Shown piece by piece: positions 7,513-42,398 of a stretch of DNA of 64,000 bases; positions within the stretch are counted from its first letter, which is position 1; every line of letters begins with the position of its first letter. The translations under genes and the position numbers were made by a program. This stretch comes from a virus (lineage: Duplodnaviria > Caudoviricetes), in the IMG/VR virus record IMGVR_UViG_3300037515_000879, positions 1 through 64,000 of that record; one strand, written 5' to 3'. The notes under the pieces were generated by a model. The model was not told the DNA's origin. It searched no databases and was given only the letters and a program-made list of their open reading frames with translations.

Positions 7513-7743
7513 TTAATTTTTTAAAACGATAATAATTTGAGGATTGCTTATTGGTGAGTCTGGGTTTACCATTAATGTGGCACCATATTTTTTTAATATG
7601 ATATCTATCTCTTGCTTGCATTTTCTTCTTGCAAGGTTTTCTGCCAACAATCTTTGTATAGCAAATTGATCCTCTTGTAGCAATTCGTTGTTTTCAACAG
7701 GAGCTACATTTTCTTTTTCTTCTACTGTTTTTTGTTTGTCCAT
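7513..7743 (-). CDS. Small hypothetical protein, possible fibre chaperone
   Basis: Fits tightly in the tail operon; helical and charged. Confidence 0.55.
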   Translation of the reverse strand: MDKQKTVEEKENVAPVENNELLQEDQFAIQRLLAENLARRKCKQEIDIILKKYGATLMVNPDSPISNPQIIIVLKN

Positions 7744-31081: not shown

Positions 31082-31177
31082 AACAAAATATAACAAAAAG
31101 ACAGGAACGCTGTCCTGCCTTTTCTTCAACTAACCAATCACCAAGAATCAATACATTAATCCTTGTGATAAATATAT

Positions 31178-31255
31178 AAAAAAAATCCCGAACATTCACC
31201 ACCTACTAAAATGAATTCTGCCCGGGATTAATTATTAATAGCATTTAATCGAAGT
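31178..31255 (-). ncRNA. Candidate small RNA
   Basis: TATATTTG box at 31260-31267, then an 11-bp stem with two GU pairs plus a 6-bp inner stem and a long U-run; no ORF. Confidence 0.3.
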
Positions 31256-31283
31256 ACAACAAATATAATACTTTTTAGTAAAC

Positions 31284-31316
31284 AAAAAAATCCCACATCA
31301 TTCCTGACATGGGATT
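31284..31316 (-). terminator. Intrinsic terminator
   Basis: AAUCCCAU-GUCA-GGAA-UGAU-GUGGGAUU plus a U-run. Confidence 0.7.
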
Positions 31317-31388
31317 GCCCCGAAAGGAGCTGGCAATTAACTAAACTTAAAAATATGACCTCGTAAATATAACTGTTTTTTATAGATT

Positions 31389-31814
31389 TTACTTTTGTTC
31401 CAATAATAGATTTGTACCAAAAATATCCTCACTCAACGTATGACCGCTTTTTGTAATGGCATAAGGAAAAAATACCTCTGCCATTGAAACAATTTCAGAT
31501 TCTATTATCGCCATCTGCGCATCGGTCCAAACTTTTACAATACGCAAAGCTGTTCTAATAGCCTGTTCCTTTGTCTTGTATTTTTTTGGAACATCAGATT
31601 GTTTTTCAAGAACCTTGTACACATTTTCCCAATTGCAAGGCAAACTGTAGTAAATAGGCTTTCCTTTGTAAAAAATTTCAAACGTTAAAGAAATAGGAAG
31701 TCCATTTTCATAATCCACAATAATCTTGTTTGCTGAATGCTCCACCAAATTCTTGGTAATCTCACCAATGGTCTTTATCGGGTCAACAGTAGTAGTATAA
31801 TTCAATATAGGCAT
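31389..31814 (-). CDS. Conserved phage protein of unknown function
   Basis: MPILNYTT...EQAIRTALRIVKVWTDAQMAIIE...AEVFFPY is a widespread phage pattern. Confidence 0.75.
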   Translation of the reverse strand: MPILNYTTTVDPIKTIGEITKNLVEHSANKIIVDYENGLPISLTFEIFYKGKPIYYSLPCNWENVYKVLEKQSDVPKKYKTKEQAIRTALRIVKVWTDAQMAIIESEIVSMAEVFFPYAITKSGHTLSEDIFGTNLLLEQK

Positions 31815-31834
31815 TTCTTCTGTTTTTTAATTTG

Positions 31835-32068
31835 TTATTTCGGAACAGGTGGAACCGGAGAATATATACTGGACAACTCCTCAATACTGGAAACATTGCT
31901 CCTCTCCGATCCAAAACCCTGTTGATAAATAGTCCTAAAAATCCCACCACCACCCCGTAACAATGATATCGCCGTCTCATAGTCCATATCCTCAACAAAT
32001 ACCTTACCATCCTTCCTTGATACCAACGTAACCAATAAACTACCAGAATGCTCAACCTTTTTTGACAT
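31835..32068 (-). CDS. Hypothetical protein
   Basis: ATG start, fits between its neighbours. Confidence 0.5.
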   Translation of the reverse strand: MSKKVEHSGSLLVTLVSRKDGKVFVEDMDYETAISLLRGGGGIFRTIYQQGFGSERSNVSSIEELSSIYSPVPPVPK

Positions 32069-32104
32069 AGATCATATAAACATGTGAGGGTCTTCAAACA
32101 TGTC

Positions 32105-32161
32105 TTAATCCAAATCTTCAAACATGTTTTCATCATCATCAACCAATACTATCCCTTCCAT
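32105..32161 (-). CDS. Candidate 18-aa acidic peptide (MEGIVLVDDDENMFEDLD)
   Basis: First ATG after the operator-linked promoter, in aaaaattATG context. Confidence 0.4.
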   Translation of the reverse strand: MEGIVLVDDDENMFEDLD

Positions 32162-32193
32162 AATTTTTAATATATAAAACGTTTTTTCAAATA

Positions 32194-32210
32194 TACGTCA
32201 TAATGTCGTA
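32194..32210. promoter_or_regulatory. 17-bp palindromic operator, copy 3 (inverted)
   Basis: TACGTCATAATGTCGTA; minus-strand TATATTTG at 32188-32195. Confidence 0.7.
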
Positions 32211-32280
32211 TAAAAAAATTTTTATAAAAAAAATAAAAAATGTGAAAAATAGTGCCGACGGATGGTTACTACCAAAAATG

Positions 32281-32314
32281 CCCCCCCTACAATTTCATTT
32301 TCGGGGGGGTGGGG
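32281..32314. repeat. C7/G7 inverted repeat plus G4 run at the strand switch
   Basis: CCCCCCC-15 nt-GGGGGGG-T-GGGG in an AT-rich genome. Confidence 0.7.
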
Positions 32315-32382
32315 TAGTTTGATGAACATCAAAAAAGAGAGTCCTTTAGGGTAAAGGACCGTTAATCTAAAATCTATTTATT

Positions 32383-32655
32383 ATGAAAGATTTTAATTCC
32401 ATTCGTCAGTCTCTATTAAAAGAGGCTACTGAAAATCCAAAAGCATTTGCTACCGCAAGTGTTGTTGGTGTCGCTGGTTCTGCTGCATCCATTGCATATG
32501 CCACGACTTTAACCACAACGTCCATTGTCAATGGCGCTGTTATTACTGCCAAGGCATCTGTTGTTGCCAAGGCTGTTGTTGGTGTTGCATTGTTAGGTGC
32601 AACCATCTATGGTTCTTACAAGCTCTATGGCTATCTCAAACCTAAAATGAAATAG
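32383..32655 (+). CDS. Ala/Val/Gly-rich small membrane protein (YATTLT family)
   Basis: Long hydrophobic segments; IAYATTLT. Confidence 0.7.
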   Translation: MKDFNSIRQSLLKEATENPKAFATASVVGVAGSAASIAYATTLTTTSIVNGAVITAKASVVAKAVVGVALLGATIYGSYKLYGYLKPKMK

Positions 32656-32657
32656 CC

Positions 32658-32888
32658 ATGTGTGATTCCATTTCACGTGAGGAGTTCTACGAAGAAGAGA
32701 ACGACTTCACATCCGAGTTATTGGATTGGCTCGAGGAAGATATGTTCCAAGAGTCCAAGGAACAACAACTTATGGACGAACTCGCAATGAAATATTGCGG
32801 TTGTCCATTTGATATTATCGACGAGGTTGTCGATAAAGAGGTTGCCACGCATTATAAGCAACTTATAATCAATGAACTTAAATCATAA
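32658..32888 (+). CDS. Very acidic small early protein
   Basis: About 22 D/E versus 6 K/R in 76 aa (hand count). Confidence 0.7.
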   Translation: MCDSISREEFYEEENDFTSELLDWLEEDMFQESKEQQLMDELAMKYCGCPFDIIDEVVDKEVATHYKQLIINELKS

Positions 32889-32893
32889 ACATC

Positions 32894-33001
32894 ATGAAAG
32901 ACACGCCTATCACTCCATTTGATAAAGTCATTGCCATTATTGTGGCAATACTGGTCGTTTCTATGTTGATTGTCAACATTTATAGATTAATAACCCTTTA
33001 A
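32894..33001 (+). CDS. 35-aa single-TM protein
   Basis: MKDTPITPFDKVIAIIVAILVVSMLIVNIYRLITL; below the ORF-track cutoff. Confidence 0.6.
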   Translation: MKDTPITPFDKVIAIIVAILVVSMLIVNIYRLITL

Positions 33002-33011
33002 AACAATAGCC

Positions 33012-33164
33012 ATGATATCAACACGATTACTCCATGTTGTCATGAGAGTATATGAATGCTCTTGTGTAGAAGCCTATCAATTCTTGGTCAATGACCACAA
33101 CAAGGCTTTCTTGTTTTCAAGTGGCAAGGTTTATATACCTTACCCCTGGTCCAGAAAACAATAA
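33012..33164 (+). CDS. 50-aa hypothetical protein
   Basis: MISTRLLHVVMRVYECSCVEAYQFL...; same aatagccATG start context as the 32658 ORF. Confidence 0.5.
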   Translation: MISTRLLHVVMRVYECSCVEAYQFLVNDHNKAFLFSSGKVYIPYPWSRKQ

Positions 33165-33233
33165 AATAATCCATGCTTTTTGTAGGAAATTATACCTACT
33201 ATGTATAAGATAGTATATTGTTATCGGAGTATC

Positions 33234-33481
33234 TGAACGTACACTATCCGATAGTGTATGAACGTACACTATGTTTTCGACTTAAAAACATGATATACAG
33301 CAATATACAAAAAAATTTGTGCGCGTTATATATATATATAGCATTTGTGTGTACAATCACCAGTATATTATAGTATATTATAGTATCTATTAACATTCTA
33401 TAATATACTTGTTTTTTTTTTTTGCTGTTTAATAAAATGTAGCATACTATAGTATGCCATAACATCTATTAACATTCTATA
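33234..33481. repeat. Cluster of direct repeats and palindromes in an AT-rich non-coding region
   Basis: TGAACGTACACTAT x2 (33234, 33259); TACACTAT-ccg-ATAGTGTA; AGTATATTAT tandem; ATCTATTAACATTCTATA x2 (33385, 33464); perfect GCATACTATAGTATGC (33442-33457). Confidence 0.8.
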
Positions 33482-33772
33482 AATATACCACTGAACGCTT
33501 CCGTGTTTTTTTGGATGCTAACAATCTACGGCATAATTATTAACATACTATTGTTATAATACTATATATCGGGTGTTAAACTTAGACATTCAGGACATTT
33601 GATTTCATATATATATAACATTTTCCATTAATAGTAAATATTCTATATAATGATGAACATCAATAAAAAGTTTTAGTATTGTAAACGAATACTAAGGTAA
33701 TCTTAATATATCATGTTAAGGCAGATGCATGAAAAAAGAAGTGATGCCGTTAATTAAATCAATTTATAGTTT

Positions 33773-34102
33773 ATGAAAACTAGGATTAAGAAAGCCAAGG
33801 GCTTTATTGTAAATGCGCTAGTACAAGGTGTACAAAGTACATGTAGTGCAACACATCTTGGGTTGAGTTATTCAATCAAGGGTGTTGAGATTGTTGAATC
33901 CAAATTAGTACACAGGGTGTATGGTTTGGAAGAAGAAGAGGTCATTAAAGAGCGTAGGCTACATACTAATGTAACCATGCTCAATAATGCTAAGGCATAC
34001 AATGCCTTTAAGGAACGCGTTGTTGAACTTGCTAAGAGTAAGTTCGGTAGTCCTGAAGAGGTCATTGTAGAGACGATTGATCATGGTAACATGTTTGTAT
34101 AA
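33773..34102 (+). CDS. Hypothetical early protein
   Basis: Monocistronic, with its own leader and terminator. Confidence 0.7.
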   Translation: MKTRIKKAKGFIVNALVQGVQSTCSATHLGLSYSIKGVEIVESKLVHRVYGLEEEEVIKERRLHTNVTMLNNAKAYNAFKERVVELAKSKFGSPEEVIVETIDHGNMFV

Positions 34103-34112
34103 TCTATAATAT

Positions 34113-34156
34113 ACACCAACAAAAATCCACCTTTGAGGGGTGGATTTTTTGGTGTT
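34113..34156 (+). terminator. Bidirectional intrinsic terminator
   Basis: AAAAATCCACC/GGTGGATTTTT stem, extended by ACACCA/TGGTGT. Confidence 0.8.
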
Positions 34157-34176
34157 GATTAAAAACATTTGATAAT

Positions 34177-34521
34177 ATGAATGGTTCCTCAAAAGGAATG
34201 GTGATGTTTATCATTATTGTTATGATATCGTTTATGATAGGCAGTTATATACTTACTGCTACATTTTTCGGTATCATAACATTGGTAGGCCTTATAGTTC
34301 TTATAGAGAGCATAGGTCCTTTGAAATGGTTGTTAAGTCGTAGTTCAAGGATATTTGATTTAATACTCTTTGGCTTTACGATATTAGCGACAATGAGCTA
34401 TGGACTCAATATAGCAGCGTCATTGACTGTTGCCGGATTGGGTTATACTTTAGTGTATGCTCCGTATTTACGAGAGCAATTAATACTAAAGAGAAAGAAT
34501 AATAAATCATTTAAAAAATAA
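34177..34521 (+). CDS. Multi-TM membrane protein
   Basis: Three to four hydrophobic segments and a basic tail. Confidence 0.7.
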   Translation: MNGSSKGMVMFIIIVMISFMIGSYILTATFFGIITLVGLIVLIESIGPLKWLLSRSSRIFDLILFGFTILATMSYGLNIAASLTVAGLGYTLVYAPYLREQLILKRKNNKSFKK

Positions 34522-34527
34522 TTCATT

Positions 34528-34779
34528 ATGGATTCTAAACAAAAAAAGGCCATTAAAGTTGGCCAGGAAGTAATATCCAATACTATTGGCGTTGTAGCCG
34601 GTATTGGTGTTGCAGTTGTTGCAATAGGGTATGCAACTACCCTTACTGGAAAGATTATTGGTGGAGCGTTTGTTTATGCCTTTGTTGCCGGTGCGAGTTC
34701 TCGTGCCGTGGACTTGGTAACAGCTCCTATTGTTAAACATTTAAATAAAGAAGACGATGTTTCTAAAGAAGCTTTATGA
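34528..34779 (+). CDS. Gly/Ala/Val-rich small membrane protein (YATTLT family)
   Basis: AIGYATTLT; Gly-zipper-like. Confidence 0.7.
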   Translation: MDSKQKKAIKVGQEVISNTIGVVAGIGVAVVAIGYATTLTGKIIGGAFVYAFVAGASSRAVDLVTAPIVKHLNKEDDVSKEAL

Positions 34780-34934
34780 CAGAGTTTTAGGTGATAGTCA
34801 TACAGAGACTACCACTGAATACATTAAAGGCAGGAAAATAGTTACTGTCAAGACCTATAAGGGTTCTGTTTGCATTTTTAAAAATGTAACGACCTATTAT
34901 CCGGGGTTTAGTATTAATCTTTAATCTATAACTT

Positions 34935-35291
34935 ATGACCAGAATCAAACCTTGGGAAGCCAAGGCATTGAAAGGCAGAATGAGAAAGTTCAAATATTTT
35001 GTGGATAGTACTTCACATTATTCACATTTCAATACATTCGAGCCTATACTACAATACCAGCCTTCCGATAAGGAAGAGGACTTTAAAGTCCAAGTTGGTG
35101 TCAATGGAAAGTTGTGTATGACACGTGAGGAGTTCGATAAATATGGATCGTTGACTCCTACCGATTATAAGTTCATAAACTTGTACTTTCCTACGGAGAC
35201 TGTGTTTGAAAGAACGGAACGATTCCTTAAAAAACGAATGGAATCTTACCGACTGCGACACAAAGAATATCTAAAACAAAGGGCCTCATAA
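34935..35291 (+). CDS. Hypothetical protein
   Basis: Followed by a GGGCCTC/GAGGCCC hairpin at the stop (35281-35299). Confidence 0.65.
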   Translation: MTRIKPWEAKALKGRMRKFKYFVDSTSHYSHFNTFEPILQYQPSDKEEDFKVQVGVNGKLCMTREEFDKYGSLTPTDYKFINLYFPTETVFERTERFLKKRMESYRLRHKEYLKQRAS

Positions 35292-35397
35292 AGAGGCCCA
35301 ATTGTAAGCTTTGCATAATATCTGTTGCTGAACAACGGGTCAAATATATGAAATAATATTGAATGTTATCAAATAAGATTGATATATAGTATAAATA

Positions 35398-35808
35398 TCA
35401 TATAACTTTAATCAATCTTGGTTTGTTCATTTTGACCTTGATATTCTTTTTGAGCTTAAATAGGCCGAATAGAAATTCCTGTTGTCTTCTGGAGTAATAG
35501 TTGACATAAATGGGATTTATGTAATAGCAATTGCCCTGACAGAATATAAGCTCTCTATCAACGAGTTCTTTTCTGTATCTATGGAAATTACCAAAAGAGC
35601 TGAAGTTAAGTTCTTGATAGGTTTTTTGAATGATTACACTATCCAAAGACATTGTGTTTGAAGTGTAATTCAATAAATCTATGAACAGTTCTTGGGCTCT
35701 TGGTTTTACACTTGAAAACCGCAATAGACCCTCGTGGGTAATTTCATATTTTTTAACTCTATTTTGATTATATAGCTGGGAAATCTTAGCCTTGATGATG
35801 TCTTTCAT
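35398..35808 (-). CDS. RepL-like winged-helix DNA-binding protein
   Basis: FSSFGNFHRYRKELVDRELI...GNCYYINP; divergent TATATTTG box at 35829-35836. Confidence 0.55.
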   Translation of the reverse strand: MKDIIKAKISQLYNQNRVKKYEITHEGLLRFSSVKPRAQELFIDLLNYTSNTMSLDSVIIQKTYQELNFSSFGNFHRYRKELVDRELIFCQGNCYYINPIYVNYYSRRQQEFLFGLFKLKKNIKVKMNKPRLIKVI

Positions 35809-35882
35809 TATCGGGATATTATGCCCTACAAATATAATAATTTTGTTTAATTAAAAAAGTCCTGGAAACAGGCAAATTTAAA

Positions 35883-36344
35883 ATGAGTGCAATTTTCAAT
35901 ACGATGATAGTAACGCTTTGCGTACTTGAAATCAATGAGAAAAAGAACAGTGCAAAGGTTGAATATTCTTTGCGCGATGGACGTAAAATCATTGACAAGG
36001 ATATCCTTGAAGATGTATTTATTACTGGACTTGCAAAATATAGATTTGACAACAACGATAAGTTTGTTGTTGGGAAAACCTATAAGAGCGAAAACAACAG
36101 CAAGGACTATGAGGCGTGTCCAATTAAGTTAATCAGGACCGCTGATTCTAAAAACAAACCAATGTTTGTCCTTAAAGTTGTAAATCAAGGCAATGACTAT
36201 TTAAAAGAATTTGTTACTCCAAATGGTCATGTTGTAAAAAGTCGGTTTTTCACTACTATTCCAAATACTGAATGGTTGAGATATTCCGATTACTTTGATT
36301 ACGCTATTAAAAAGCGTGAAGAAATGAAAGCTGAAAACGTTTAA
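35883..36344 (+). CDS. Hypothetical protein
   Basis: TAATTTTG box at 35838-35845; terminator after the gene. Confidence 0.65.
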   Translation: MSAIFNTMIVTLCVLEINEKKNSAKVEYSLRDGRKIIDKDILEDVFITGLAKYRFDNNDKFVVGKTYKSENNSKDYEACPIKLIRTADSKNKPMFVLKVVNQGNDYLKEFVTPNGHVVKSRFFTTIPNTEWLRYSDYFDYAIKKREEMKAENV

Positions 36345-36356
36345 TTATGTTGATTT

Positions 36357-36389
36357 AATAAGCCCTTTCTTAATTGAAGGGGCTTATTT
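36357..36389 (+). terminator. Intrinsic terminator
   Basis: AATAAGCCCTTTC/GAAGGGGCTTATT. Confidence 0.75.
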
Positions 36390-36446
36390 AAAATAATTTG
36401 TATATTTGAGTTGTTATAACATATTAAACCTCAAAAACAAATTATC

Positions 36447-37142
36447 ATGAGCGCGACAAAAAGAAAAGACTACGTGGGAACCATCGGTGCATTAAAAATA
36501 TTGCTTACCGCAATAGTTGCTGGTGAAACCGTAACAATCAATGGCCTTGTATATACAGCCGTGAATGGAGCAAAAGCCAACAATACTGAATTCAGTGCAG
36601 ATACATCTGATACTGCTGCTGCAACAGACCTTGCGGATTCTATTAACAATGATGTTCGTTCTGGAACATATGAAGCAACCTTGGTTGCAACATCTAGTGG
36701 AACTCAAGTAACTGTAACGGCGACAAGCACCAATATCAATTTGCTTACTGCAGAAAGTAATGATCAAGCAATTATAACTGTTGCAGAGAGTTTCACATTG
36801 CTTTCATTGGCATCAAATTCCGGAAATAATAATCCTACATTGAAACAGGTGAATTTTATGAATACACCATTTTCTGTGCAGAGTTCCGGAGCCGATAAAG
36901 AAGTGTGGAAATCAACAACAGCAAGATTGCTTCAGATAGACACCGAGACCAAATTCAATGCACTTGCCGTAAGGGATAGAGTATTGAACGGAAGCCGTGA
37001 AGGATGGATATCAGCACACGTAGCTAGTACAAGCCTTGAATTTACTTATCTTGATATAACAAAAACTGAAATTTCAAAAACCTTGACAATGGCAGAAGTC
37101 TTTGCCAGTGGTGATTTGTTCTTTTTGAACGAGGATTTTTAA
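36447..37142 (+). CDS. Virion-structural-like protein in its own transcription unit
   Basis: GETVTINGLVYT...AAATDLADSIN...VATSSGTQVTVTA is a sheath/fibre insertion-type domain; TATATTTG box at 36401-36408. Confidence 0.6.
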   Translation: MSATKRKDYVGTIGALKILLTAIVAGETVTINGLVYTAVNGAKANNTEFSADTSDTAAATDLADSINNDVRSGTYEATLVATSSGTQVTVTATSTNINLLTAESNDQAIITVAESFTLLSLASNSGNNNPTLKQVNFMNTPFSVQSSGADKEVWKSTTARLLQIDTETKFNALAVRDRVLNGSREGWISAHVASTSLEFTYLDITKTEISKTLTMAEVFASGDLFFLNEDF

Positions 37143-37164
37143 GTTTAATTGTTTTAATTGATTT

Positions 37165-37192
37165 AAAGCCATGCAATTGCGTGGCTTTTTTT
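37165..37192 (+). terminator. Intrinsic terminator
   Basis: AAAGCCATGC-AATT-GCGTGGCTTT plus a T-run. Confidence 0.8.
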
Positions 37193-37203
37193 ATTATATT
37201 GTA

Positions 37204-37446
37204 ATGAAAGAAACAGATATTCGAAAAAAAACCAAGAAACAATATATTTTATCTTCTAAAGAAAAAAAAGACATTTATACAATGCTTTTTGGTCCTTATG
37301 AAGACGAATGGTATGATGAAAACGGTATTGTTGACAATACCGATGTAACAATAGCAAGAAGGCTTAATATATCAAGGGTATCTGTTGCTGCTTATACAAA
37401 CAGATTGTGTCATATGCATTTTAATAAAATCAATAGTAATGGATAA
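37204..37446 (+). CDS. Small HTH DNA-binding protein
   Basis: DVTIARRLNISRVSVAAY. The track ATG at 37171 lies inside the terminator, so 37204 is the likelier start. Confidence 0.6.
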   Translation: MKETDIRKKTKKQYILSSKEKKDIYTMLFGPYEDEWYDENGIVDNTDVTIARRLNISRVSVAAYTNRLCHMHFNKINSNG

Positions 37447-37642
37447 AAATAAAAATTTGAAAATATATTATACCTATGGCCATTATTTGGAATATGAGGA
37501 ATGGTCTGAAATGTTTGCAGATGAAATAGATATGGAGCTTATAAATATTGGAGCTAACAATGAATTGGATTTTAATCCAGAAAGGGAGTATGAAAAAAGA
37601 TACCAAATATATTTAGAGGTATATTATAATTCTCGTGTTTAA
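37439..37642 (+). CDS. Small acidic protein
   Basis: MDKNKNL...YEEWSEMFADEIDMEL...DFNPEREYE. Confidence 0.6.
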   Translation: MDKNKNLKIYYTYGHYLEYEEWSEMFADEIDMELINIGANNELDFNPEREYEKRYQIYLEVYYNSRV

Positions 37643-37652
37643 ATTAAAAATT

Positions 37653-38165
37653 ATGAAACAATTATTAGTTATCCCTCTAATGCTAATAGGATTATTGGGA
37701 ACATCACAAAATGGATTCCGTATTCCGGATGATGAACATGCCATCTTTAGTGTATATGCAGATTATGCTGACAGTAAAGTCAATGGATATGGCCCCAATA
37801 TAGGGGCTGAATTTGGTTATTCTGGATTTGTGGAAGCCAAGGTTGGATTTGAAACGTTTCCACAATTGTATGGTGGCTATATAGATGTACATGGTGCAAT
37901 AGGATTTAAAATGGTACACGGCCTTTGGGAACAATGGAATTATTATGCTGGTATTCGTGCCATAGTGGTATGGCGCGGTGGAGAAGGCGCGTGGAGAGCC
38001 CAGCCAGGCATTGAAGGACAAATAACGTATGACCTCAATGACTGGTTTGGGATTGGACTTCGTGGAACCTATGATAAACGCTATGATATGGAAATATTTG
38101 ATTGGCCTGTAAAAAATGTGGCCAGTGCATATTTGATAATAATATTTAAGCTTAAAAGACAATAA
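37653..38165 (+). CDS. Outer-membrane beta-barrel protein (about 8 strands)
   Basis: Signal peptide MKQLLVIPLMLIGLLG; alternating aromatic/Gly strands (GAEFGY, YYAGIR, IGLRGTY); C-terminal AYLIIIFKL. Confidence 0.75.
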   Translation: MKQLLVIPLMLIGLLGTSQNGFRIPDDEHAIFSVYADYADSKVNGYGPNIGAEFGYSGFVEAKVGFETFPQLYGGYIDVHGAIGFKMVHGLWEQWNYYAGIRAIVVWRGGEGAWRAQPGIEGQITYDLNDWFGIGLRGTYDKRYDMEIFDWPVKNVASAYLIIIFKLKRQ

Positions 38166-38167
38166 AG

Positions 38168-38443
38168 ATGGAAGAAGAATTTGAAATGCCTACACCCTGT
38201 CAAAAATGCGGTGAAATATTTGACCTGAATGATGGCACAGGTTCAGTTAAATGGTTTCCAAACACTGTAATTTGTCAAAAATGCGGTGATGAGGAAGAAA
38301 AAGAAATTGAACGAGATGAGGAAATTGAGGACTTAAAAAGCCAAATTGATGATGCAAATTACACCATCAAAGAAGCTCGTTCAAGATTAATGGAATTAGG
38401 CGTAGATGTTCCTTCTTTAAGAGTTCATACACCTGATTATTAA
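38168..38443 (+). CDS. CxxC-CxxC zinc-ribbon plus acidic coiled coil
   Basis: CQKCG...CQKCG. Confidence 0.7.
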   Translation: MEEEFEMPTPCQKCGEIFDLNDGTGSVKWFPNTVICQKCGDEEEKEIERDEEIEDLKSQIDDANYTIKEARSRLMELGVDVPSLRVHTPDY

Positions 38444-38471
38444 AGGTGCGGTGGCAGGGATAAATTATTTC

Positions 38472-38603
38472 TGCTAACGTTAAAATATATGATTAGTAGT
38501 CGTAAATAAGCGACTAAATATCGAATTAAAACTAAGTTATTAAACACTTAATAGCCTTTAAAATAAGCACGACACAGGCTATTAATTATATATAGTGTTG
38601 TGA
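38472..38603 (+). mobile_element. attC-like site A
   Basis: TGCTAAC-6 nt-15-bp arm (38485-38499) pairing with 38579-38593-3 nt-GTTGTGA. Confidence 0.7.
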
Positions 38604-38613
38604 AACGTTTTTT

Positions 38614-38901
38614 ATGAGAACTTACAAAAATGAATTAGAAGTAATTGCAAACGATTTACTTACTCAAAATGCAGAAGCAAAAGGTAATGAAAACAAGCCG
38701 AATTATACTAACAGAGAATTTATGAATGCTGTTATTATTTTCCAAACTGCATTAATGGATAAAATGTATGATAACCAAGACTATGACAAAATGGATGTTG
38801 AAAATCGTTTTAAAATGGCTGAGAGTTGCGGATTAGATTTACGCAAATTAATACACACTTACACAGGTTTAGATACTCATAAATTCGAGGACTTTCTGTA
38901 A
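38614..38901 (+). CDS. Cassette gene 1, hypothetical
   Basis: Sits between GTTGTG and CACAAC core sites. Confidence 0.8.
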   Translation: MRTYKNELEVIANDLLTQNAEAKGNENKPNYTNREFMNAVIIFQTALMDKMYDNQDYDKMDVENRFKMAESCGLDLRKLIHTYTGLDTHKFEDFL

Positions 38902-38906
38902 ATGTT

Positions 38907-38999
38907 GCACAACGTAAAGTATAAGGTGAGAAGCCACACCTGAAATTTGGCTATTAAACACAAACCTTAGATGGCTTTTCACTTTATACAGTGTTACCC
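38907..38999 (+). mobile_element. attC-like site B
   Basis: GCACAAC-5 nt-18-bp arm (38919-38936) pairing with 38972-38989-3 nt-GTTACCC. Confidence 0.75.
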
Positions 39000-39021
39000 A
39001 TCTTTTAAAAATGGCGGACAA

Positions 39022-39321
39022 ATGAAAGCTAAATATGAACAAATTGATGGAGTTGGTTATCTCACTTTTAAAGTAACCGAAGAAATGGGATTGATGAAAT
39101 TGCCTGTAATTACTAAAAGAATAAGGCAAGGAACAAATGCTTGGACTTGGAATGGTGATTTGGATAAGCCAACATTAAGACCAAGCGTAAGAACTGGTTA
39201 TTACAACGGCAAAGAAATGACGGAAATACATTATTGGCTTAATGACGGAATAGCTGATTGCTTGGGCGACTGCAAAGACGGAAATGCTGGTAAGAAACTA
39301 CCTTTATTAGAACTCGAATAG
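39022..39321 (+). CDS. Cassette gene 2, DUF6527-like
   Basis: WTWNGDLDKPTLRPSV...H....DG...CLGDC...AG; the in-frame ATG at 39022 follows site B. Confidence 0.7.
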   Translation: MKAKYEQIDGVGYLTFKVTEEMGLMKLPVITKRIRQGTNAWTWNGDLDKPTLRPSVRTGYYNGKEMTEIHYWLNDGIADCLGDCKDGNAGKKLPLLELE

Positions 39322-39338
39322 TAGCCATTTTTTATTGT

Positions 39339-39556
39339 GGGTAACGTTTACGGGTATGTTGTCGGTTTTTTACGGAATAAATAAAATATAATTATGAAAA
39401 CAACAAGTGAAGTATTTAAAGAAGTGCTGATAGAATTAGGTTTTGCAGGATATAAACCAAGCCAAATGACTAACAGCGATTATTGGTTATGCACTACAAC
39501 TGCTATGGAACGGTATGCTAAATTAGTAAAAAACTGCAATATACCCGATGTTAGCA
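39339..39556 (+). mobile_element. attC-like site C with a coding loop
   Basis: GGGTAAC-5 nt-CGGGTATGTTGT pairing with GCAATATACCCG-2 nt-GTTAGCA; the loop contains the ATG at 39394. Confidence 0.7.
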
Positions 39557-39708
39557 AATCGTTGCCGATTAAGAAATACGAAATTGATTTTGACGGCAAT
39601 GTATTGGCAGGGATAGAAATATCTGAAAACACACCGAAAGTATTTGGGGCAATGAATGGTTACGGCAATGGTATTAGTATCGAAAATATCAAAATTACCG
39701 AGAAGTAA
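39394..39708 (+). CDS. Chimeric cassette gene spanning site C
   Basis: Codon 53 (GTT, Val) is the site C core: ...KNCNIPD|VSKSLP... Confidence 0.75.
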   Translation: MKTTSEVFKEVLIELGFAGYKPSQMTNSDYWLCTTTAMERYAKLVKNCNIPDVSKSLPIKKYEIDFDGNVLAGIEISENTPKVFGAMNGYGNGISIENIKITEK

Positions 39709-39715
39709 GGCAATG

Positions 39716-39741
39716 TTTGGTAACAAGTGGATATATATACC
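39716..39741 (+). mobile_element. attC-like half site D (left arm only)
   Basis: TTTGGTAAC complements GTTAGCAAA of site C at 8/9, followed by 9 nt then TAT as in sites A and C; no right arm found. Confidence 0.5.
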
Positions 39742-39772
39742 ATTACACTATATTAACAAATAAATTGAAATT

Positions 39773-40201
39773 ATGATTTGGATATGTAAATGGTTCAAAA
39801 AAAGAACTAAAAAAAAAATTATGGTTGTTGAAACTAATATCGAGGAAATGACAATATCGGAGCTTGTTTTCTGTCTTGAAGTTAATTCATATAGAAGAAA
39901 GCTTGGTCTAAATGAGCTTGAGCTTAATGGACATTTATTGACTTTAGCCAAACATAGAATGGCTTATTGGACAACAAACGATATTAAAAAAAATTTGCAT
40001 TTTGAATTTTTTGGAGACAGAAAACCATATCTTGAAAACGGATTCAAATTGGTTTTGGAGCTTGCCAATTATGGCATTGTCAATGATTTTGAGTCTTTCA
40101 AAAAAAGCCCCGAACATAATGAAGGGATATTGATTAAAGAACTCAAATATATTGCAGTATCGATGAAAGGAAATTGGTGCTGTGTAATCCTTGGTTATTA
40201 A
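39773..40201 (+). CDS. CAP/SCP-domain protein
   Basis: VNSYRRKLGLNEL...L...AKH...H..F..R...SPEHNEGIL...IAV. Confidence 0.75.
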   Translation: MIWICKWFKKRTKKKIMVVETNIEEMTISELVFCLEVNSYRRKLGLNELELNGHLLTLAKHRMAYWTTNDIKKNLHFEFFGDRKPYLENGFKLVLELANYGIVNDFESFKKSPEHNEGILIKELKYIAVSMKGNWCCVILGY

Positions 40202-40339
40202 AAAAACTTATTTTAAGCCCTTTTAACGCGTTTTATTATTTTTAGATACTAGACCATCAAAATAAAGAGAAGTCTTTAAAACGCTATATATCTACAATAA
40301 GCCAGACCTGTTTTTGTATAATCCTAAAACAGATAAATT

Positions 40340-40459
40340 ATGGAATCAAAAATCGATTTAAAAAAAAGTATTGAAAATTATCATTCTGATAGTTTTTATT
40401 TGATAAGTCCGGATGGATTTTCAATAGCTCATGAAAAACAAAACAAAGAAAATACATAA
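40340..40459 (+). CDS. 39-aa hypothetical protein
   Basis: MESKIDLKKSIENYHSDSF...; below the track cutoff. Confidence 0.4.
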   Translation: MESKIDLKKSIENYHSDSFYLISPDGFSIAHEKQNKENT

Positions 40460-40461
40460 CC

Positions 40462-40578
40462 ATGAATCTTAATGTAATAATACCTGAAAAATGGAACCCT
40501 GAATGCAAAAAATCTTTTAATAAATGGATTAACAGGGTACATACCGAGGTTAAAAAAAAGAAAATTAAAAAATCATGA
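40462..40578 (+). CDS. 38-aa basic hypothetical protein
   Basis: MNLNVIIPEKWNPECKKSFNKWINRVH...; ATGA-coupled to radC. Confidence 0.45.
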   Translation: MNLNVIIPEKWNPECKKSFNKWINRVHTEVKKKKIKKS

Positions 40579-41039
40579 TTGAATATAAAACCGATTTACC
40601 ACAATTTCATTTGGTAAAAGAAAAATCTGATTTTAAACGTGTAAAAATAACATGTTCAAGAGATGCTGCAGAATATGCCCATAATTTTTACGGGTTTGAT
40701 ATAGAATTATTTGAAAGCTTTTTTATCATGCTTTTAAACAATTCAAACAATACCATTGGTTATGTAAAAATATCTCAAGGTGGTATTGTTGGAACTATCG
40801 TTGATGTTAGGATTGTTGCAAAATATGCTGTGGAATCTTTGTCAACTGGAATTATTTTGGTACACAATCATCCAAGTGGAAATTTAAAACCAAGCCAACC
40901 AGATATTGACCTTACCAAAAAAATAAAAGAAGGTTTAAAAATACTGGATGTAACTGTTTTGGATCATATAATAATAATTCCAATTGAAAAAAACGAAAAT
41001 ATAAAATATACCAGTCTTTGTGATGATGGATTAATGTAA
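40575..41039 (+). CDS. radC: RadC-like JAB domain protein
   Basis: ESFFIMLLNNSN, GGIVGTIVDVRIV, HNHPSGNLKPSQPD, VLDHII. Confidence 0.92.
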   Translation: MIEYKTDLPQFHLVKEKSDFKRVKITCSRDAAEYAHNFYGFDIELFESFFIMLLNNSNNTIGYVKISQGGIVGTIVDVRIVAKYAVESLSTGIILVHNHPSGNLKPSQPDIDLTKKIKEGLKILDVTVLDHIIIIPIEKNENIKYTSLCDDGLM

Positions 41040-41050
41040 AAATATTTGAT

Positions 41051-41308
41051 ATGATAACAAACGCTATTAATACAGTAATAAATTATAATTATTTCTGTAT
41101 GAATTACAGTCATAAATTTATTCACGAATGTTGGAAAGGGAATGATGTTCTCATACAACATCTTGAAATGAAATTCAATGATATTTATTTAAGAAGAGGA
41201 ACTGCAACAATGCCGTTCTTTTTTGTAGAATTGGACAGGGAAAATCAAAAAAAATTGACCAAGTGGATTAATGAAAATCATGTAGCATTTAAAGAACTTG
41301 AATTATGA
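41051..41308 (+). CDS. Hypothetical protein
   Basis: Operon fit. Confidence 0.65.
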   Translation: MITNAINTVINYNYFCMNYSHKFIHECWKGNDVLIQHLEMKFNDIYLRRGTATMPFFFVELDRENQKKLTKWINENHVAFKELEL

Positions 41309-41517
41309 AAAAAACATTTAATTATGTTGAAATAACCCTTGGTATCGTAGAGGCTGAAGATCTTGAAGATGCTATGGCTGTTGTTGAACATGGGTTTGGA
41401 CCCAATATTGGACACACTACATATGAAGTGTTTAATCCTGATGATGATCCAAAATTTTGGGGAAACCTAGAGATTGATACTGTAAAGGAACTTAAATCCA
41501 AAATCGAAAAATTATGA
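41305..41517 (+). CDS. Small protein, DpnD/PcfM-like motif
   Basis: IVEAEDLEDAMAVV. Confidence 0.45.
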   Translation: MKKTFNYVEITLGIVEAEDLEDAMAVVEHGFGPNIGHTTYEVFNPDDDPKFWGNLEIDTVKELKSKIEKL

Positions 41518-42398
41518 GTGTTTATGAAATAATAACTGACGAAATAATTAAAAGACTTGAATCTGGTGTTGTTCCTTGGCAAAAGCCTGTAAGAGGAATG
41601 ATATTGCCACCAATGAATTTCAAATCAAAAAAACGTTATCGTGGTGTCAATTGCCTTTTGTTGTCAAATAAAGAATCTATGAGCCCTTATTGGCTTACAT
41701 ATAACCAAGCCAAGGAACTTGATGGTGAAATTACAAAAGGAAGTAAGGGAACCCGTATAGTTTTTTCGAAATTGATTGAAAAAGAAAAAAATAATGAAAT
41801 TGTTAAGGTTCCGATATTTAGATATTCATACGTTTTTAATCTTAATCAAATTAAAAACATAGAATGTCCATATAAAAAAGAGTTGGACAGTTTTGGTGAT
41901 TTTGAATATATTGAAAATTGTCAAAATTTGTTATCAAGATTGGATGAAGAGAAAAAAATTCCTAAAATTGAGGAAGTTTATGACAAAAGAATTGCTTGTT
42001 ATAATGTCAGCAAGGATATTATTTTTACTATTCCTAAAAAACATTATGTTACTTCCGAAAAATATTATTCGGTAATGTTTCATGAGATTATTCATTCAAC
42101 AGGACATCTTTCAAGATTAAATAGAATAACCTTGACAGAAAATAAAGACGAAAATTATGCCAAAGAAGAATTGGTGGCAGAAATAGGCGCTTCTTTTTTG
42201 TGCGGTGTTACCGGTATTATAACTGATACTATTGAAAATAGTTCTGCATATATTGATAATTGGTTGAAAAGAATCAGGAATGATAAAACTTTAGTTATAA
42301 CAGCAGCCAGTAAAGCACAGGAAGCCGTTGATTGGCTTAATGTTTATGATGATTCTATTGATAGTGAAATATTAATACAAGGTGAAAGAAATGGATAA
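41514..42398 (+). CDS. ardC: ArdC-like ssDNA-binding/zincin anti-restriction protein
   Basis: LESGVVPWQKP, YRGVNCLLL, WLTYNQAKE, FHEIIHSTGH..RLNR, YAKEELVAEIGA. Confidence 0.92.
   Translation: MSVYEIITDEIIKRLESGVVPWQKPVRGMILPPMNFKSKKRYRGVNCLLLSNKESMSPYWLTYNQAKELDGEITKGSKGTRIVFSKLIEKEKNNEIVKVPIFRYSYVFNLNQIKNIECPYKKELDSFGDFEYIENCQNLLSRLDEEKKIPKIEEVYDKRIACYNVSKDIIFTIPKKHYVTSEKYYSVMFHEIIHSTGHLSRLNRITLTENKDENYAKEELVAEIGASFLCGVTGIITDTIENSSAYIDNWLKRIRNDKTLVITAASKAQEAVDWLNVYDDSIDSEILIQGERNG

Follow-up and report, generated by a model that had tools for sequence, protein, structure and literature searches.

A probable integron-type cassette array without an integrase in a Crassvirales-like phage, and its site family in Bacteroidota

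Integrons are the standard example of a system with which bacteria store and exchange individual genes. The locus described here raises the question of whether a phage can carry such exchangeable genes in the same form, and if so, what enzyme would move them. An earlier note had read a short stretch of phage DNA as an integron-like cassette array inside a lytic crAss-like phage, with the recombinase acting in trans as part of a distinct Bacteroidota-type system. The DNA analysed, hereafter "the window", is a stretch of 64,000 nucleotides (positions 1 to 64,000 of IMG/VR record IMGVR_UViG_3300037515_000879). Bacteroidota have been listed both as having integrons (PMC8618304) and as lacking them (bioRxiv 2024.07.02.601686). 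Clusters of attC sites without an integrase (CALINs) have been reported from virulent phages by Qi et al. 2023 (PMC9892861), and that part of the picture is already known. As far as could be found, the site family in Bacteroidota, its recombinase and the inverted gene polarity in phages are new. On sequence comparison we consider it probable that the array is integron-like and served in trans by an enzyme of the host; no recombination was observed.

The array lies in a + strand operon of a phage genome of 82,257 bp. Portal and TerL have PHROG matches, which meets the test for a Crassvirales-like phage, and a giant ORF of more than 2836 aa at 55147-64000 answers to another membership feature, the giant virion RNA polymerase gene. 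The best TerL matches are uncultured crAss-like phages at ~25% identity, so that the crAss-like setting stands as a relationship inferred from these matches, though a distant one. Of two flanking proteins used to look for close relatives, a 142-aa protein had no homologs and a 91-aa protein had distant homologs only, none of them in cassettes; a DNA search of the phage collection with positions 36000-42000 matched only the cassette-1 gene and a JAB gene. Because no close phage relative was found, gain or loss at the 38.4-39.8 kb locus itself is not shown.

A purpose-written finder was used to score the layout AAC-spacer-arm-loop-arm-spacer-GTT across all 82,257 bp. The three top-scoring sites genome-wide are A (14), B (16) and C (13), with a runner-up at 12. 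They stand head to tail within 1.1 kb, and the three full sites plus a closing core fit within 1.25 kb. The elements are as follows.

38464..38478, + strand: left core before site A, ATTATTTCTGCTAAC; phage backbone or relic; the array starts after AAC 38476-38478
38476..38611, + strand: site A; AAC 38476-38478, gttaaa spacer, arms of 15-17 nt, 75-nt loop, agt spacer, GTT 38597-38599; right core GTTGTGAAACGTTTT
38911..39007, + strand: site B; AAC 38911-38913, gtaaa spacer, 18-bp arms, 35-nt loop, agt spacer, GTT 38993-38995; right core GTTACCCATC
39343..39566, + strand: site C; AAC 39343-39345, gttta spacer, 20-nt arms, 157-nt loop, at spacer, GTT 39550-39552; right core GTTAGCAAATCGTTGCC
39351-39370 and 39528-39547, + strand: arms of site C, inverted repeat I5, 80% complementary over 20 nt
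39708..39724, + strand: element D, terminal left core of cassette 3; the array ends at AAC 39722-39724

These positions agree with the earlier note for all four elements, as do the unpaired spacers of A-C (5-6 nt on the left, 2-3 nt on the right); two of its descriptions had to be changed. D had been called a half site. It is instead the terminal left core of cassette 3 and not a decayed site: the backbone resumes at 39725 with no hairpin there, and other arrays likewise end in AAC| followed by a start other than G, without a hairpin. C had been placed within a gene; in fact C is the cassette's own site, and its loop contains the start of the cassette 3 ORF, which continues across the right arm and the right core. 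A reading of C and of several lillamy sites as half sites was abandoned, their right arms having been found inside annotated or apparent ORFs. At the other end of the array, the left core at 38464..38478 carries family features (T at -11, TAAC), and the whole genome upstream of it has no GTT core to which it is complementary. Within the phage genome, the motif AACGT(T)AAA...AGTGTT is present at A and B only.

Folding of A and B as single-stranded DNA on both strands, a check proposed at the outset, gave a divided answer. The stem of B forms on the + strand only, because of its G·T pairs, but the energies of A and B were no better than those of shuffles (z -1.3 and -1.5, not significant). Folding energy is therefore not used as evidence, and the support set out below is comparative, not thermodynamic.

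Within the genome, such support comes from complementarity between neighbouring sites. Cross-site pairing was ranked against all 1454 AAC positions on the + strand, and the next-site partner of the right core ranked 1 for C to D, 5 for B to C and 10 for A to B; D is the best genome-wide partner of the site C right core. Pairing of a right core with the left core of its own site scored below next-site pairing for A, B and C alike. In related loci, 23 of 47 distinct cassettes had at least 8 of 11 matches at the variable positions 5-15, a level reached by 0.7% of random core pairs, whereas complementarity within the same site was that of random pairs (3.55 vs 3.52). Position 11 of the outer stem was G·T in 23 of 24. 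In a chromosomal array the two ends of a cassette follow the same rule (7.5 matches vs 3.7), and homologous cassettes bear different yet co-varying cores. The proposal that each right core pairs with the next left core and not with its own is thus borne out, and a complementarity no better than controls, which would have refuted it, was not what we found.

A chance pattern in AT-rich intergenic DNA would fit the unremarkable folding energies and the fact that the partners for A to B and B to C are in the top 1% without being unique. It leaves unexplained why the top three sites of 82 kb lie head to tail within 1.1 kb, why C to D ranks first of 1454, why B is recovered by a model trained on other genomes, and why cassettes 1 and 2 recur elsewhere with identical ends. 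The comparative data already refute this explanation, and we attach next to no weight to it.

Reading from one junction to the next, the locus resolves into three cassettes.

38479..38913 (435 bp), + strand: cassette 1; hairpin A, right core, gene, left core ...TGCACAAC
38614..38901, + strand: cassette 1 gene; 95 aa, no known family
38914..39345 (432 bp), + strand: cassette 2; hairpin B, gene, left core ...TTGTGGGTAAC
39022..39321, + strand: cassette 2 gene; 99 aa, DUF6527 / phrog_3362
39346..39724 (379 bp), + strand: cassette 3; hairpin C (start codon in loop), gene, left core GGCAATGTTTGGTAAC
39394..39708, + strand: cassette 3 gene; 104 aa, no known family

The test for a CALIN, at least two attC-type sites within a few kb and no integrase, is met, provided that the sites count as attC-type. 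We think it likely that positions 38479-39724 are a three-cassette integron-type array without an integrase, a CALIN, with the caution that neither excision nor integration has been observed.

Cassette 1 has complementary ends: GTTGTGAAACGTTTT compares with GTTGTGCAACATTTA, the reverse complement of the other end, and position 11 is a G·T. Its gene has no Pfam or PHROG matches; relatives of it are found in 70 IMG/VR loci. It is 78% identical at the DNA level to gp015 of unrelated Flavobacterium siphophages, and this homology is limited to 38608-38902, ending at the cores. Cassettes that contain this gene and have co-varying ends are also found in IMG/VR contigs, in lillamy-type phages (of which there are isolates, with the host LMO9) and in Algoriphagus, where cassette 1 is present in a chromosomal array. 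Apart from the cassette-1 gene, no protein is common to the window phage and lillamy9-1, and they share no enzyme. Cassette 2, whose gene matches Pfam PF20137 (E 5e-8) and phrog_3362 (E 2e-11), recurs with hairpin B and both ends in two loci (L105 and L106) that have unrelated flanks, with boundaries ..GGTAAC|GGCAAAGTATAAGG.. and ..TGGGTAAC|ACAGTTG. For cassette 3 the evidence is of parts: residues 1-~50 and 54-102 of its protein have separate homologs in other viral contigs, and one locus (L117) keeps its last 18 codons and left core, followed by another hairpin site.

The same behaviour is seen beyond the window. Homologous cassettes share the upstream hairpin from |GTATCGGTGC, and DNA outside AAC| on both sides is unrelated. 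The sibling phages sniff9-1 and lillamy9-1 differ by a 1165-bp insertion that has AAC|GT at both boundaries; comparison of related phages, which had been suggested as a check, thus placed the ends of an indel exactly at cores. Recurrence with identical ends, co-varying ends and this core-bounded indel are the observations that support the integron-like reading.

To define the site family, 42 sites were aligned (alignment A3), of which site A is the first row and 41 come from other loci. AACG and TGTT are invariant in 42 of 42 sites, and 17 of 23 pairs show compensatory changes. In the fold, TAACG/TGTTA together with x'/x makes up the outer stem; the inner stem has 18-20 bp, and spacers of ~5 nt and 1-3 nt separate the two. 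The aligned inner stems are free of bulges, a 1-nt bulge being found in some outer stems only, and the loops fall into two length classes with conserved sequence. The sites had been described as unrelated in primary sequence; this does not hold, as arms and loops show family-wide conservation. Covariance modelling, another of the proposed checks, recovered B, which scores 41.8 bits (E 5e-7) with model R1 although it was left out of the training set. Site A scores 88.9 bits, but A is a training row, and only the left part of site C is seen, weakly (17.5 bits, E 0.1).

The family keeps a G·T wobble at three places: the junction, outer-stem position 11 and the inner stem; as G·U, the pair is kept at the junction in 42 of 42 rows and in the inner stem in 41 of 42. 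Under neutral scoring the sense strand has 119 G·T pairs vs 28 A·C, and among sites of the family 77 scoring at least 13 lie on the gene strand vs 5 on the opposite strand. The implication of the conserved wobbles is that the gene-sense strand is the folding strand, and hence that the hairpin travels with the downstream gene. As placed by comparison, the cassette junction is the left AAC|G on the gene-sense strand, and not the right G|TT at which the earlier note had put the crossover; the hairpin belongs to the gene that follows it. The invariance of AACG means that AA|C, AAC|G and AACG| cannot be told apart as the exact junction.

A role in RNA would likewise be compatible with G·U pairs on the sense strand and with sites that share the orientation of the genes. 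One could suppose that this role is the main one, that the x/x' stem loops out the coding region, that the conserved G·U pairs mark where an RNase or some other protein cuts or binds, and that modularity of the DNA is a by-product. Pairs kept invariably as G·U, and not as G-C or A-U, are characteristic of functional RNA helices, and the stem of B forms on the sense strand only. However, the unit boundaries in the DNA coincide with the stem junction to the base, and the cassette genes of bacterial arrays are antisense to the folding strand, which would leave the fold outside their mRNA. Nor is any Rfam family matched, even at permissive thresholds: the window gave no match at gathering thresholds and two chance-level matches at E up to 5, and the lillamy and sniff loci gave none. 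Identity with Flavo-1, which had been offered as an example of what such a search might find, is rejected on the same grounds. We regard a mainly RNA-based function as quite improbable, and note that an RNA role could coexist with the integron-like reading in phages.

A second alternative has a precedent in virulent phages. In T4-like phages, small non-essential genes are flanked by stem-loop motifs (PeSL; Arbiol et al. 2010, PMC2839356) and shuffled between them, with circular intermediates proposed; PeSL combine early promoters of the sigma-70 type with terminators, and sequence homology is the basis of their recombination (PMC2839356). The window resembles this system in that small genes of a virulent phage are flanked by stem-loops. 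Its stem-loops might then be terminators, processing sites or mRNA stabilisers of an operon, shuffled by homologous recombination with no dedicated recombinase. In phages the sites are indeed all co-oriented with genes and the sense-strand wobbles are G·U; their left parts share 15-20 nt, a possible seed for homologous recombination; the loci L001 and L002 have a 16-nt overlap where sniff and lillamy diverge at the junction; and PeSL mini-circles are the precedent in virulent phages (PMC2839356). In contrast to PeSL, the sites of the window lack a promoter/terminator signature, their arms differ from site to site and the junctions are base-precise, so that the PeSL test is not met. Promoter-like matches were not above shuffles, the stems have no T-tract, and no + strand terminator was found at A-C; the terminator-only reading was rejected because this simple scan gave no signal at the sites, and the hairpins cannot be dismissed as RNA terminators alone, an outcome that would have refuted the cassette interpretation. 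Homologous recombination also fails to explain co-varying ends complementary over 10-15 nt, or a cassette (locus L005) whose left neighbour lacks the conserved TAAC (..TTTATC|GTATCGG). Finally, chromosomal sites lie antisense to genes, in arrays adjoining a dedicated recombinase, which PeSL do not have. Shuffling of operon stem-loops by homology is an improbable account of the data.

Sites of the family are widespread. Unrelated siphophages of Flavobacterium and Polaribacter have them on the flanks of early genes, and 105 of the 121 Flavobacterium genomes sampled contain them. Chromosomes of Flavobacterium and Algoriphagus have them in long one-directional arrays of up to 36 cassettes, 0.35-1.9 kb each, that adjoin a tyrosine recombinase. 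It appears that phage and host draw swappable genes from a common pool. The polarity of the genes differs between the two settings: in chromosomes they are antisense to the folding strand, the classical integron arrangement, and in phages they are in sense. Phage arrays thus hold gene-inverted cassettes, read by the phage operon.

No tyrosine recombinase (PF00589) is encoded anywhere in the 82-kb phage genome, which extends to the whole genome what had been remarked for the window. Four other site-bearing phage records were inspected, and one only has a tyrosine recombinase, ~50 kb from the cassette gene. The chromosomes differ in this respect. In genome G095 and in Algoriphagus the array-adjacent enzymes (PF13495 plus PF00589) are 43% identical to each other, and five further genomes have one close homolog each, 0.7-12 kb from arrays, so that an Xer/IntI-type tyrosine recombinase accompanies the arrays in 7 of 7 chromosomes examined. 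One such array-adjacent enzyme is a protein of 347 aa at L103:6426-7469. The ORFs that follow the recombinase (347 aa in G095, 331 aa in Algoriphagus) were considered as a conserved partner and rejected; they are not homologous and belong to no Pfam family. The best NCBIfam match of the recombinase is the integron integrase model TIGR02249, at 202 bits, below the cut-off of 265. Where VchIntIA has 66 residues it has 23, and the IntI-specific insertion, thought essential for integron function, is missing. Judged from its sequence, the enzyme is closest to integron integrases and resembles XerA/XerC-like recombinases. The test for a complete integron, an adjacent IntI-clade integrase with the specific insertion, is not met. 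With no insertion and a score below cut-off, activity on the hairpins is inferred from adjacency alone. Subject to that inference, the absence of a recombinase in the phage and its presence beside chromosomal arrays bear out both the enzyme acting in trans and the distinct Bacteroidota-type system.

The recombinase also bears on a further alternative, in which an HUH/Y1 enzyme like those of IS200/IS605 or REP-RAYT elements would cut beside the hairpin, move the cassettes in single-stranded form and insert them 3' of TAAC. IS608 and REP/RAYT elements are strand-specific, insert 3' of a fixed tetranucleotide and have a conserved G·T mismatch in the stem, and by analogy the sites recall them in all three respects. 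But in 7 of 7 chromosomes the arrays lie beside a Xer/IntI tyrosine recombinase and not an HUH enzyme (Y1 transposases were not searched for), and each unit has one hairpin, not two subterminal ones. We consider this route very unlikely.

Several features place the system close to integrons. Sites A, B and C meet the test for AAC...GTT inverse cores at the ends of an imperfect inverted repeat, and the tests for a two-stem hairpin that has an unpaired central spacer and folds on one strand, and for cassettes whose two ends are complementary so that the circle rebuilds the full site, are met as well. As in attC, the junction lies within AAC on the folding strand. Like chromosomal integrons, the family forms long one-directional arrays beside a tyrosine recombinase whose best family match is the integron integrase model. 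There are also differences. The recombinase, without the IntI-specific insertion, is XerA/XerC-like. The sites lack the conserved extrahelical bases that in the L box of attC set the choice of strand, and have the three invariant G·T wobbles instead; the spacer is asymmetric (4-5 nt against 1-2) and the loops are conserved in sequence, unlike those of classical attC. Complementarity of the ends extends over ~15 bp, compared with 7 in integrons, and phage genes are in sense with the folding strand, with the hairpin 5' of its gene, unlike integron genes. The housekeeping XerCD recombinase integrates the whole phage CTX-phi, as folded single-stranded DNA, at dif. By analogy the substrate of a Xer-like tyrosine recombinase would here be a hairpin resembling a core site that has two arms and an unpaired centre, with the difference that the enzyme is a separate, array-linked paralogue and the substrates are many small cassettes.

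The published sites bear on this comparison. When Qi et al. 2023 (PMC9892861) tested 6 attC sites of virulent phages, IntI1 recombined 5 of them, and the one it failed to recombine was P12002L_attC1 (PMC9892861). Of the published sites this is the one most like the family, and its layout matches that of the window sites. P12002L, a Polaribacter (Flavobacteriaceae) phage, was described as having two sites, divergent in direction (Qi et al. 2023, PMC9892861), whereas our finder gives at least 8 co-oriented sites; HattCI did call one P12002L site of the family layout. That study includes no Crassvirales-like phage, no chromosomal Bacteroidota arrays and no recombinase, and does not treat the side of the junction, the wobble pairs or cassette sharing between phage families.

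We propose the following mechanism for the integron-like reading. Each cassette has the layout |G-spacer-arm-loop-arm-spacer-T-GTTA-x ... gene ... x'-TAAC|. On circularisation x' and x would pair as an outer stem of ~15 bp, which, joined to the inner stem across the asymmetric unpaired spacer, would give a two-stem, attC-like hairpin on the gene-sense strand. During infection a recombinase encoded beside a host array may bind this folded strand when it is single-stranded, for instance in replication. It would cleave within AAC and exchange strands, as integron integrases do on attC bottom strands. Cassettes would be excised as circles and inserted at other sites, and genes may in this way be moved between phages and host arrays. 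In its full form the proposal is that Bacteroidota own an integron-like lineage (a Xer-like enzyme without the IntI insertion, G·T-marked attC-type sites, 15-bp end pairing, and large chromosomal arrays that standard finders largely miss), and that virulent phages of several unrelated families, one of them crAss-like, draw on and feed this pool with gene-inverted cassettes, the host recombinase catalysing exchange during infection. The case for this full form we hold to be evenly balanced.

Three tiny phage genes thus lead to a site family found in most sampled Flavobacterium genomes, and to arrays of dozens of cassettes beside a candidate recombinase that lacks a supposedly essential domain. 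With the covariance model of the sites, cassette genes of Bacteroidota and of their phages can readily be collected. Should the recombinase prove active, recombination at hairpin sites would have a broader enzymology than is now described, and the mosaic early regions of several families of aquatic Bacteroidota phages would gain a concrete mechanism. Obligately lytic phages and their hosts would then trade cassettes directly, which would matter for the spread of anti-defence and defence genes.

A purpose-written finder for the layout AAC, 3-7 nt spacer, arm, loop, complementary arm, 0-4 nt spacer, GTT returned three sites, A, B and C, as its top three matches in the whole 82,257-bp phage genome; the next match scored 12. 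A fourth element, D, closes the array.

38476-38599, site A, finder score 14
38911-38995, site B, finder score 16
39343-39552, site C, finder score 13
39722-39724, AAC end of element D, a left core only

The sequence at 38472-39745 is laid out as the earlier note described it. That note had also proposed that each right core, which starts with GTT, pairs with the left core of the next site and not with its own. When each right core was compared with the 17 nt preceding every + strand AAC triplet (n = 1454), the proposal was borne out: the partner of A at B ranked tenth, that of B at C fifth and that of C at D first, and for every right core the own left core was the poorer match. Folding energies of A and B were not significant, and taken alone the window makes only a moderately convincing case.

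Across 0.5 Mb of related loci, the finder identified 77 sites scoring at least 13 on the gene strand versus 5 on the opposite strand. The right core matches the next left core at 8 or more of the 11 variable positions (5-15) in 23 of 47 distinct consecutive site pairs, a level reached by only 0.7% of random core pairs; same-site complementarity in this 47-pair test was no better than random. In an alignment of 42 long-loop sites, whose first row is window A, AACG and TGTT are invariant, compensatory changes occur in 17 of 23 pairs, and a G·T wobble is found at the junction in all 42 rows and in the inner stem in 41. The covariance model built from these sites, R1, recovers B at an E value of 5e-7 though B was absent from its training; C is weakly modelled. 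At outer stem position 11, 23 of 24 cassettes have G·T. Under neutral scoring the sense strand carries 119 G·T pairs versus 28 A·C, from which we infer that the folding strand in these phage loci is the gene-sense strand.

The cassette 1 gene, which lies between A and B at 38614-38901, has 78% DNA identity to gp015 of Lillamyvirus, a genus of Flavobacterium siphophages. The DNA homology ends at 38608 and 38902, and the window phage has no other protein in common with these siphophages. In lillamy9-1, gp015 is flanked by an A/B-type layout whose upstream right core, GTTATAACTC, matches the reverse complement of the downstream left core exactly. The entire leftward early region of lillamy9-1 has the cassette build, with 9-14 nt of flank complementarity at 9 of 22 genes (cross-pair control, 6.8 ± 1.5). 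Homologs of the cassette 1 gene occur in 70 IMG/VR contigs, many of which carry the complementary-end signature with cores that differ but co-vary (GTTAGCGGC.. with ..GCCGCTAAC, GTTAGGGTGC.. with ..GCACCCTAAC, GTTAGTGGC.. with ..GCCACTAAC). Several small annotated lillamy9-1 ORFs overlap site arms or cores, including those listed here, and some may not be genes.

L003 (lillamy9-1) record 5986-6114, gp016, spans the left core and hairpin that follow gp017
L003 record 7615-7716, gp022, includes a right arm
L003 record 4578-4817, gp012, starts within a site loop

The window phage itself has a TerL about 25% identical to Crassvirales and is crAss-like only distantly; no close relatives of it were found. 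Just 3' of the array lies a JAB/RadC-like gene (40575-41039) with 66% DNA identity to a Tenacibaculum phage Gundel_1 gene, a further case of a gene common to Flavobacteriaceae phages; no hairpin site was seen beside it.

The complementarity signature alone fits a left or a right crossover equally. The earlier note favored a right-side crossover at G|TT and suggested looking for indels exactly there in related phages. An indel bounded by cores does exist, a three-gene, 1165-bp insertion distinguishing sniff9-1 from lillamy9-1, but each end coincides with the AAC|GT of a left core rather than with G|TT, and the hairpin preceding gp017 remains with gp017. Cassette-1 family copies in six loci (L004, L010, L019, L040, L083, L085) share an upstream hairpin from |GTATCGGTGCTATACG. 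To the left of AAC| their sequences are unrelated, and beyond ..GCCGCTAAC| each has a different downstream hairpin; the copy in L005 has TTTATC| on the left instead of AAC|. L105 and L106 contain further copies of cassette 2, in which hairpin B and the two ends are preserved. On these observations the unit is |G..hairpin..GTTAx-gene-x'TAAC|, where x and x' are the complementary ends. Because the hairpin travels with the unit, the junction is assigned to the left AAC|G and not to a right-side crossover. Since AACG is invariant, the cut can be placed no closer than AA|C to AACG|, a range that takes in the AA|C at which integron sites are cut on their folding strand. With the unit defined as hairpin plus downstream gene, the claim that site C lies within a gene no longer stands: C is the site of cassette 3 itself, and its loop, 157 nt long, holds the start of the cassette 3 ORF. 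Lillamy gp012 begins in the same manner.

A cassette 2 homolog in L104 (1354-1500, compared with window 38911-39021) retains the gene and left core (..TTGTGGGTAAC), but its hairpin is different and its right core (GTTAGAAAC) does not match, so an exchange 5' of the gene need not follow the AAC|G unit. Separate homologs on other viral contigs correspond to each half of the cassette 3 protein (39394-39708), residues 1-~50 in L113 and L114 and residues 54-102 in L115 and L116. The break between the halves falls where C has its right arm and right core (about 39528-39566). Such chimeras could conceivably arise from rare recombination of the opposite strand on the GTT side. Cassette recombination is itself an inference, as nothing here shows an event, and an RNA role for the phage hairpins is not excluded and may accompany a role in recombination.

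No tyrosine recombinase was found in the window phage, in agreement with the earlier note, which had also suggested scanning Bacteroidota hosts with a covariance model. R1 matched 105 of 121 sampled Flavobacterium genomes, and Algoriphagus confluentis. Sites are numerous in most Flavobacterium genomes of 2-4 Mb; 8 of the 16 site-free genomes rank with the largest in the sample (5.3-5.9 Mb; G007, G014, G018, G021, G087, G089, G091, G096), which may reflect a clade or lifestyle difference. The Flavobacterium chromosome G095 (C1:196000-255999, L101-L103) carries 36 sites in about 42 kb, all on one strand, with the intervening ORFs all on the opposite strand. Cassette-end complementarity averages 7.5/11 versus 3.7 for same-site pairs, several cassettes are duplicated within the array, the same core pair being present at two or more positions, and the contents include DUF6794, alpha/beta hydrolases, a baeRF family 3 protein and a GTPase. 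At the distal end of this array are two copies of an IS91-type element (L101:3972-5614 and L101:10-1652; Y2_Tnp and Zn_Tnp_IS91, 371 aa, preceded by a 182-aa ORF). The promoter-proximal end carries a 347-aa protein with Phage_int_SAM_4 and Phage_integrase domains.

L103:6426-7469, - strand, Xer/IntI-like recombinase gene at one end of the G095 array

A 43%-identical protein occupies the equivalent position beside a four-site array in Algoriphagus, and five further genomes have a single close homolog 0.7-12 kb from sites. The best curated family is the integron integrase model TIGR02249 (202 bits, under the cut-off of 265), and the best solved relative is a XerA-like recombinase. Alignment to the integron integrase VchIntIA (2a3v) falls in two pieces, and a stretch of 66 residues in the integron enzyme is represented by 23, so the IntI-specific insertion is missing, which fits inner stems without extrahelical bases. 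The putative link between recombinase and sites rests on adjacency in seven genomes; no recombination has been shown.

Qi et al. (2023, PMC9892861) described attC clusters in phages, 17 in all, with the virulent Polaribacter P12002L, Pseudoalteromonas PH101 and Tetrasphaera TJE1 among the carriers; IntI1 recombined five of six tested sites, the failure being P12002L_attC1. That site and the PH101 sites share the layout of the window sites. Two attC sites were published for P12002L, and our finder detects at least 8 co-oriented family sites among its early genes (L089, record 31121-40948, - strand). One P12002L right core, GTTACCCATCTGTAT (record about 38036), is almost equal to that of window B. 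The nearest phage analogue of the window cassettes, PeSL elements, differ in being promoter-terminator motifs exchanged by homology (PMC2839356). We found no description of the Flavobacterium arrays, their recombinase, the wobble pairs, the junction side or a crAss-like carrier, but our coverage of the literature is incomplete and novelty is unproven.

Genes in the chromosomal arrays are antisense to the folding strand, and these arrays resemble classical integrons, in which attC lies 3' of its own gene. The orientation is the opposite in the phages and for a cassette-1 homolog within the Algoriphagus array: there the folding strand is the sense strand of the gene. The phage arrays are thus composed of gene-inverted cassettes, which the phage operon can read.
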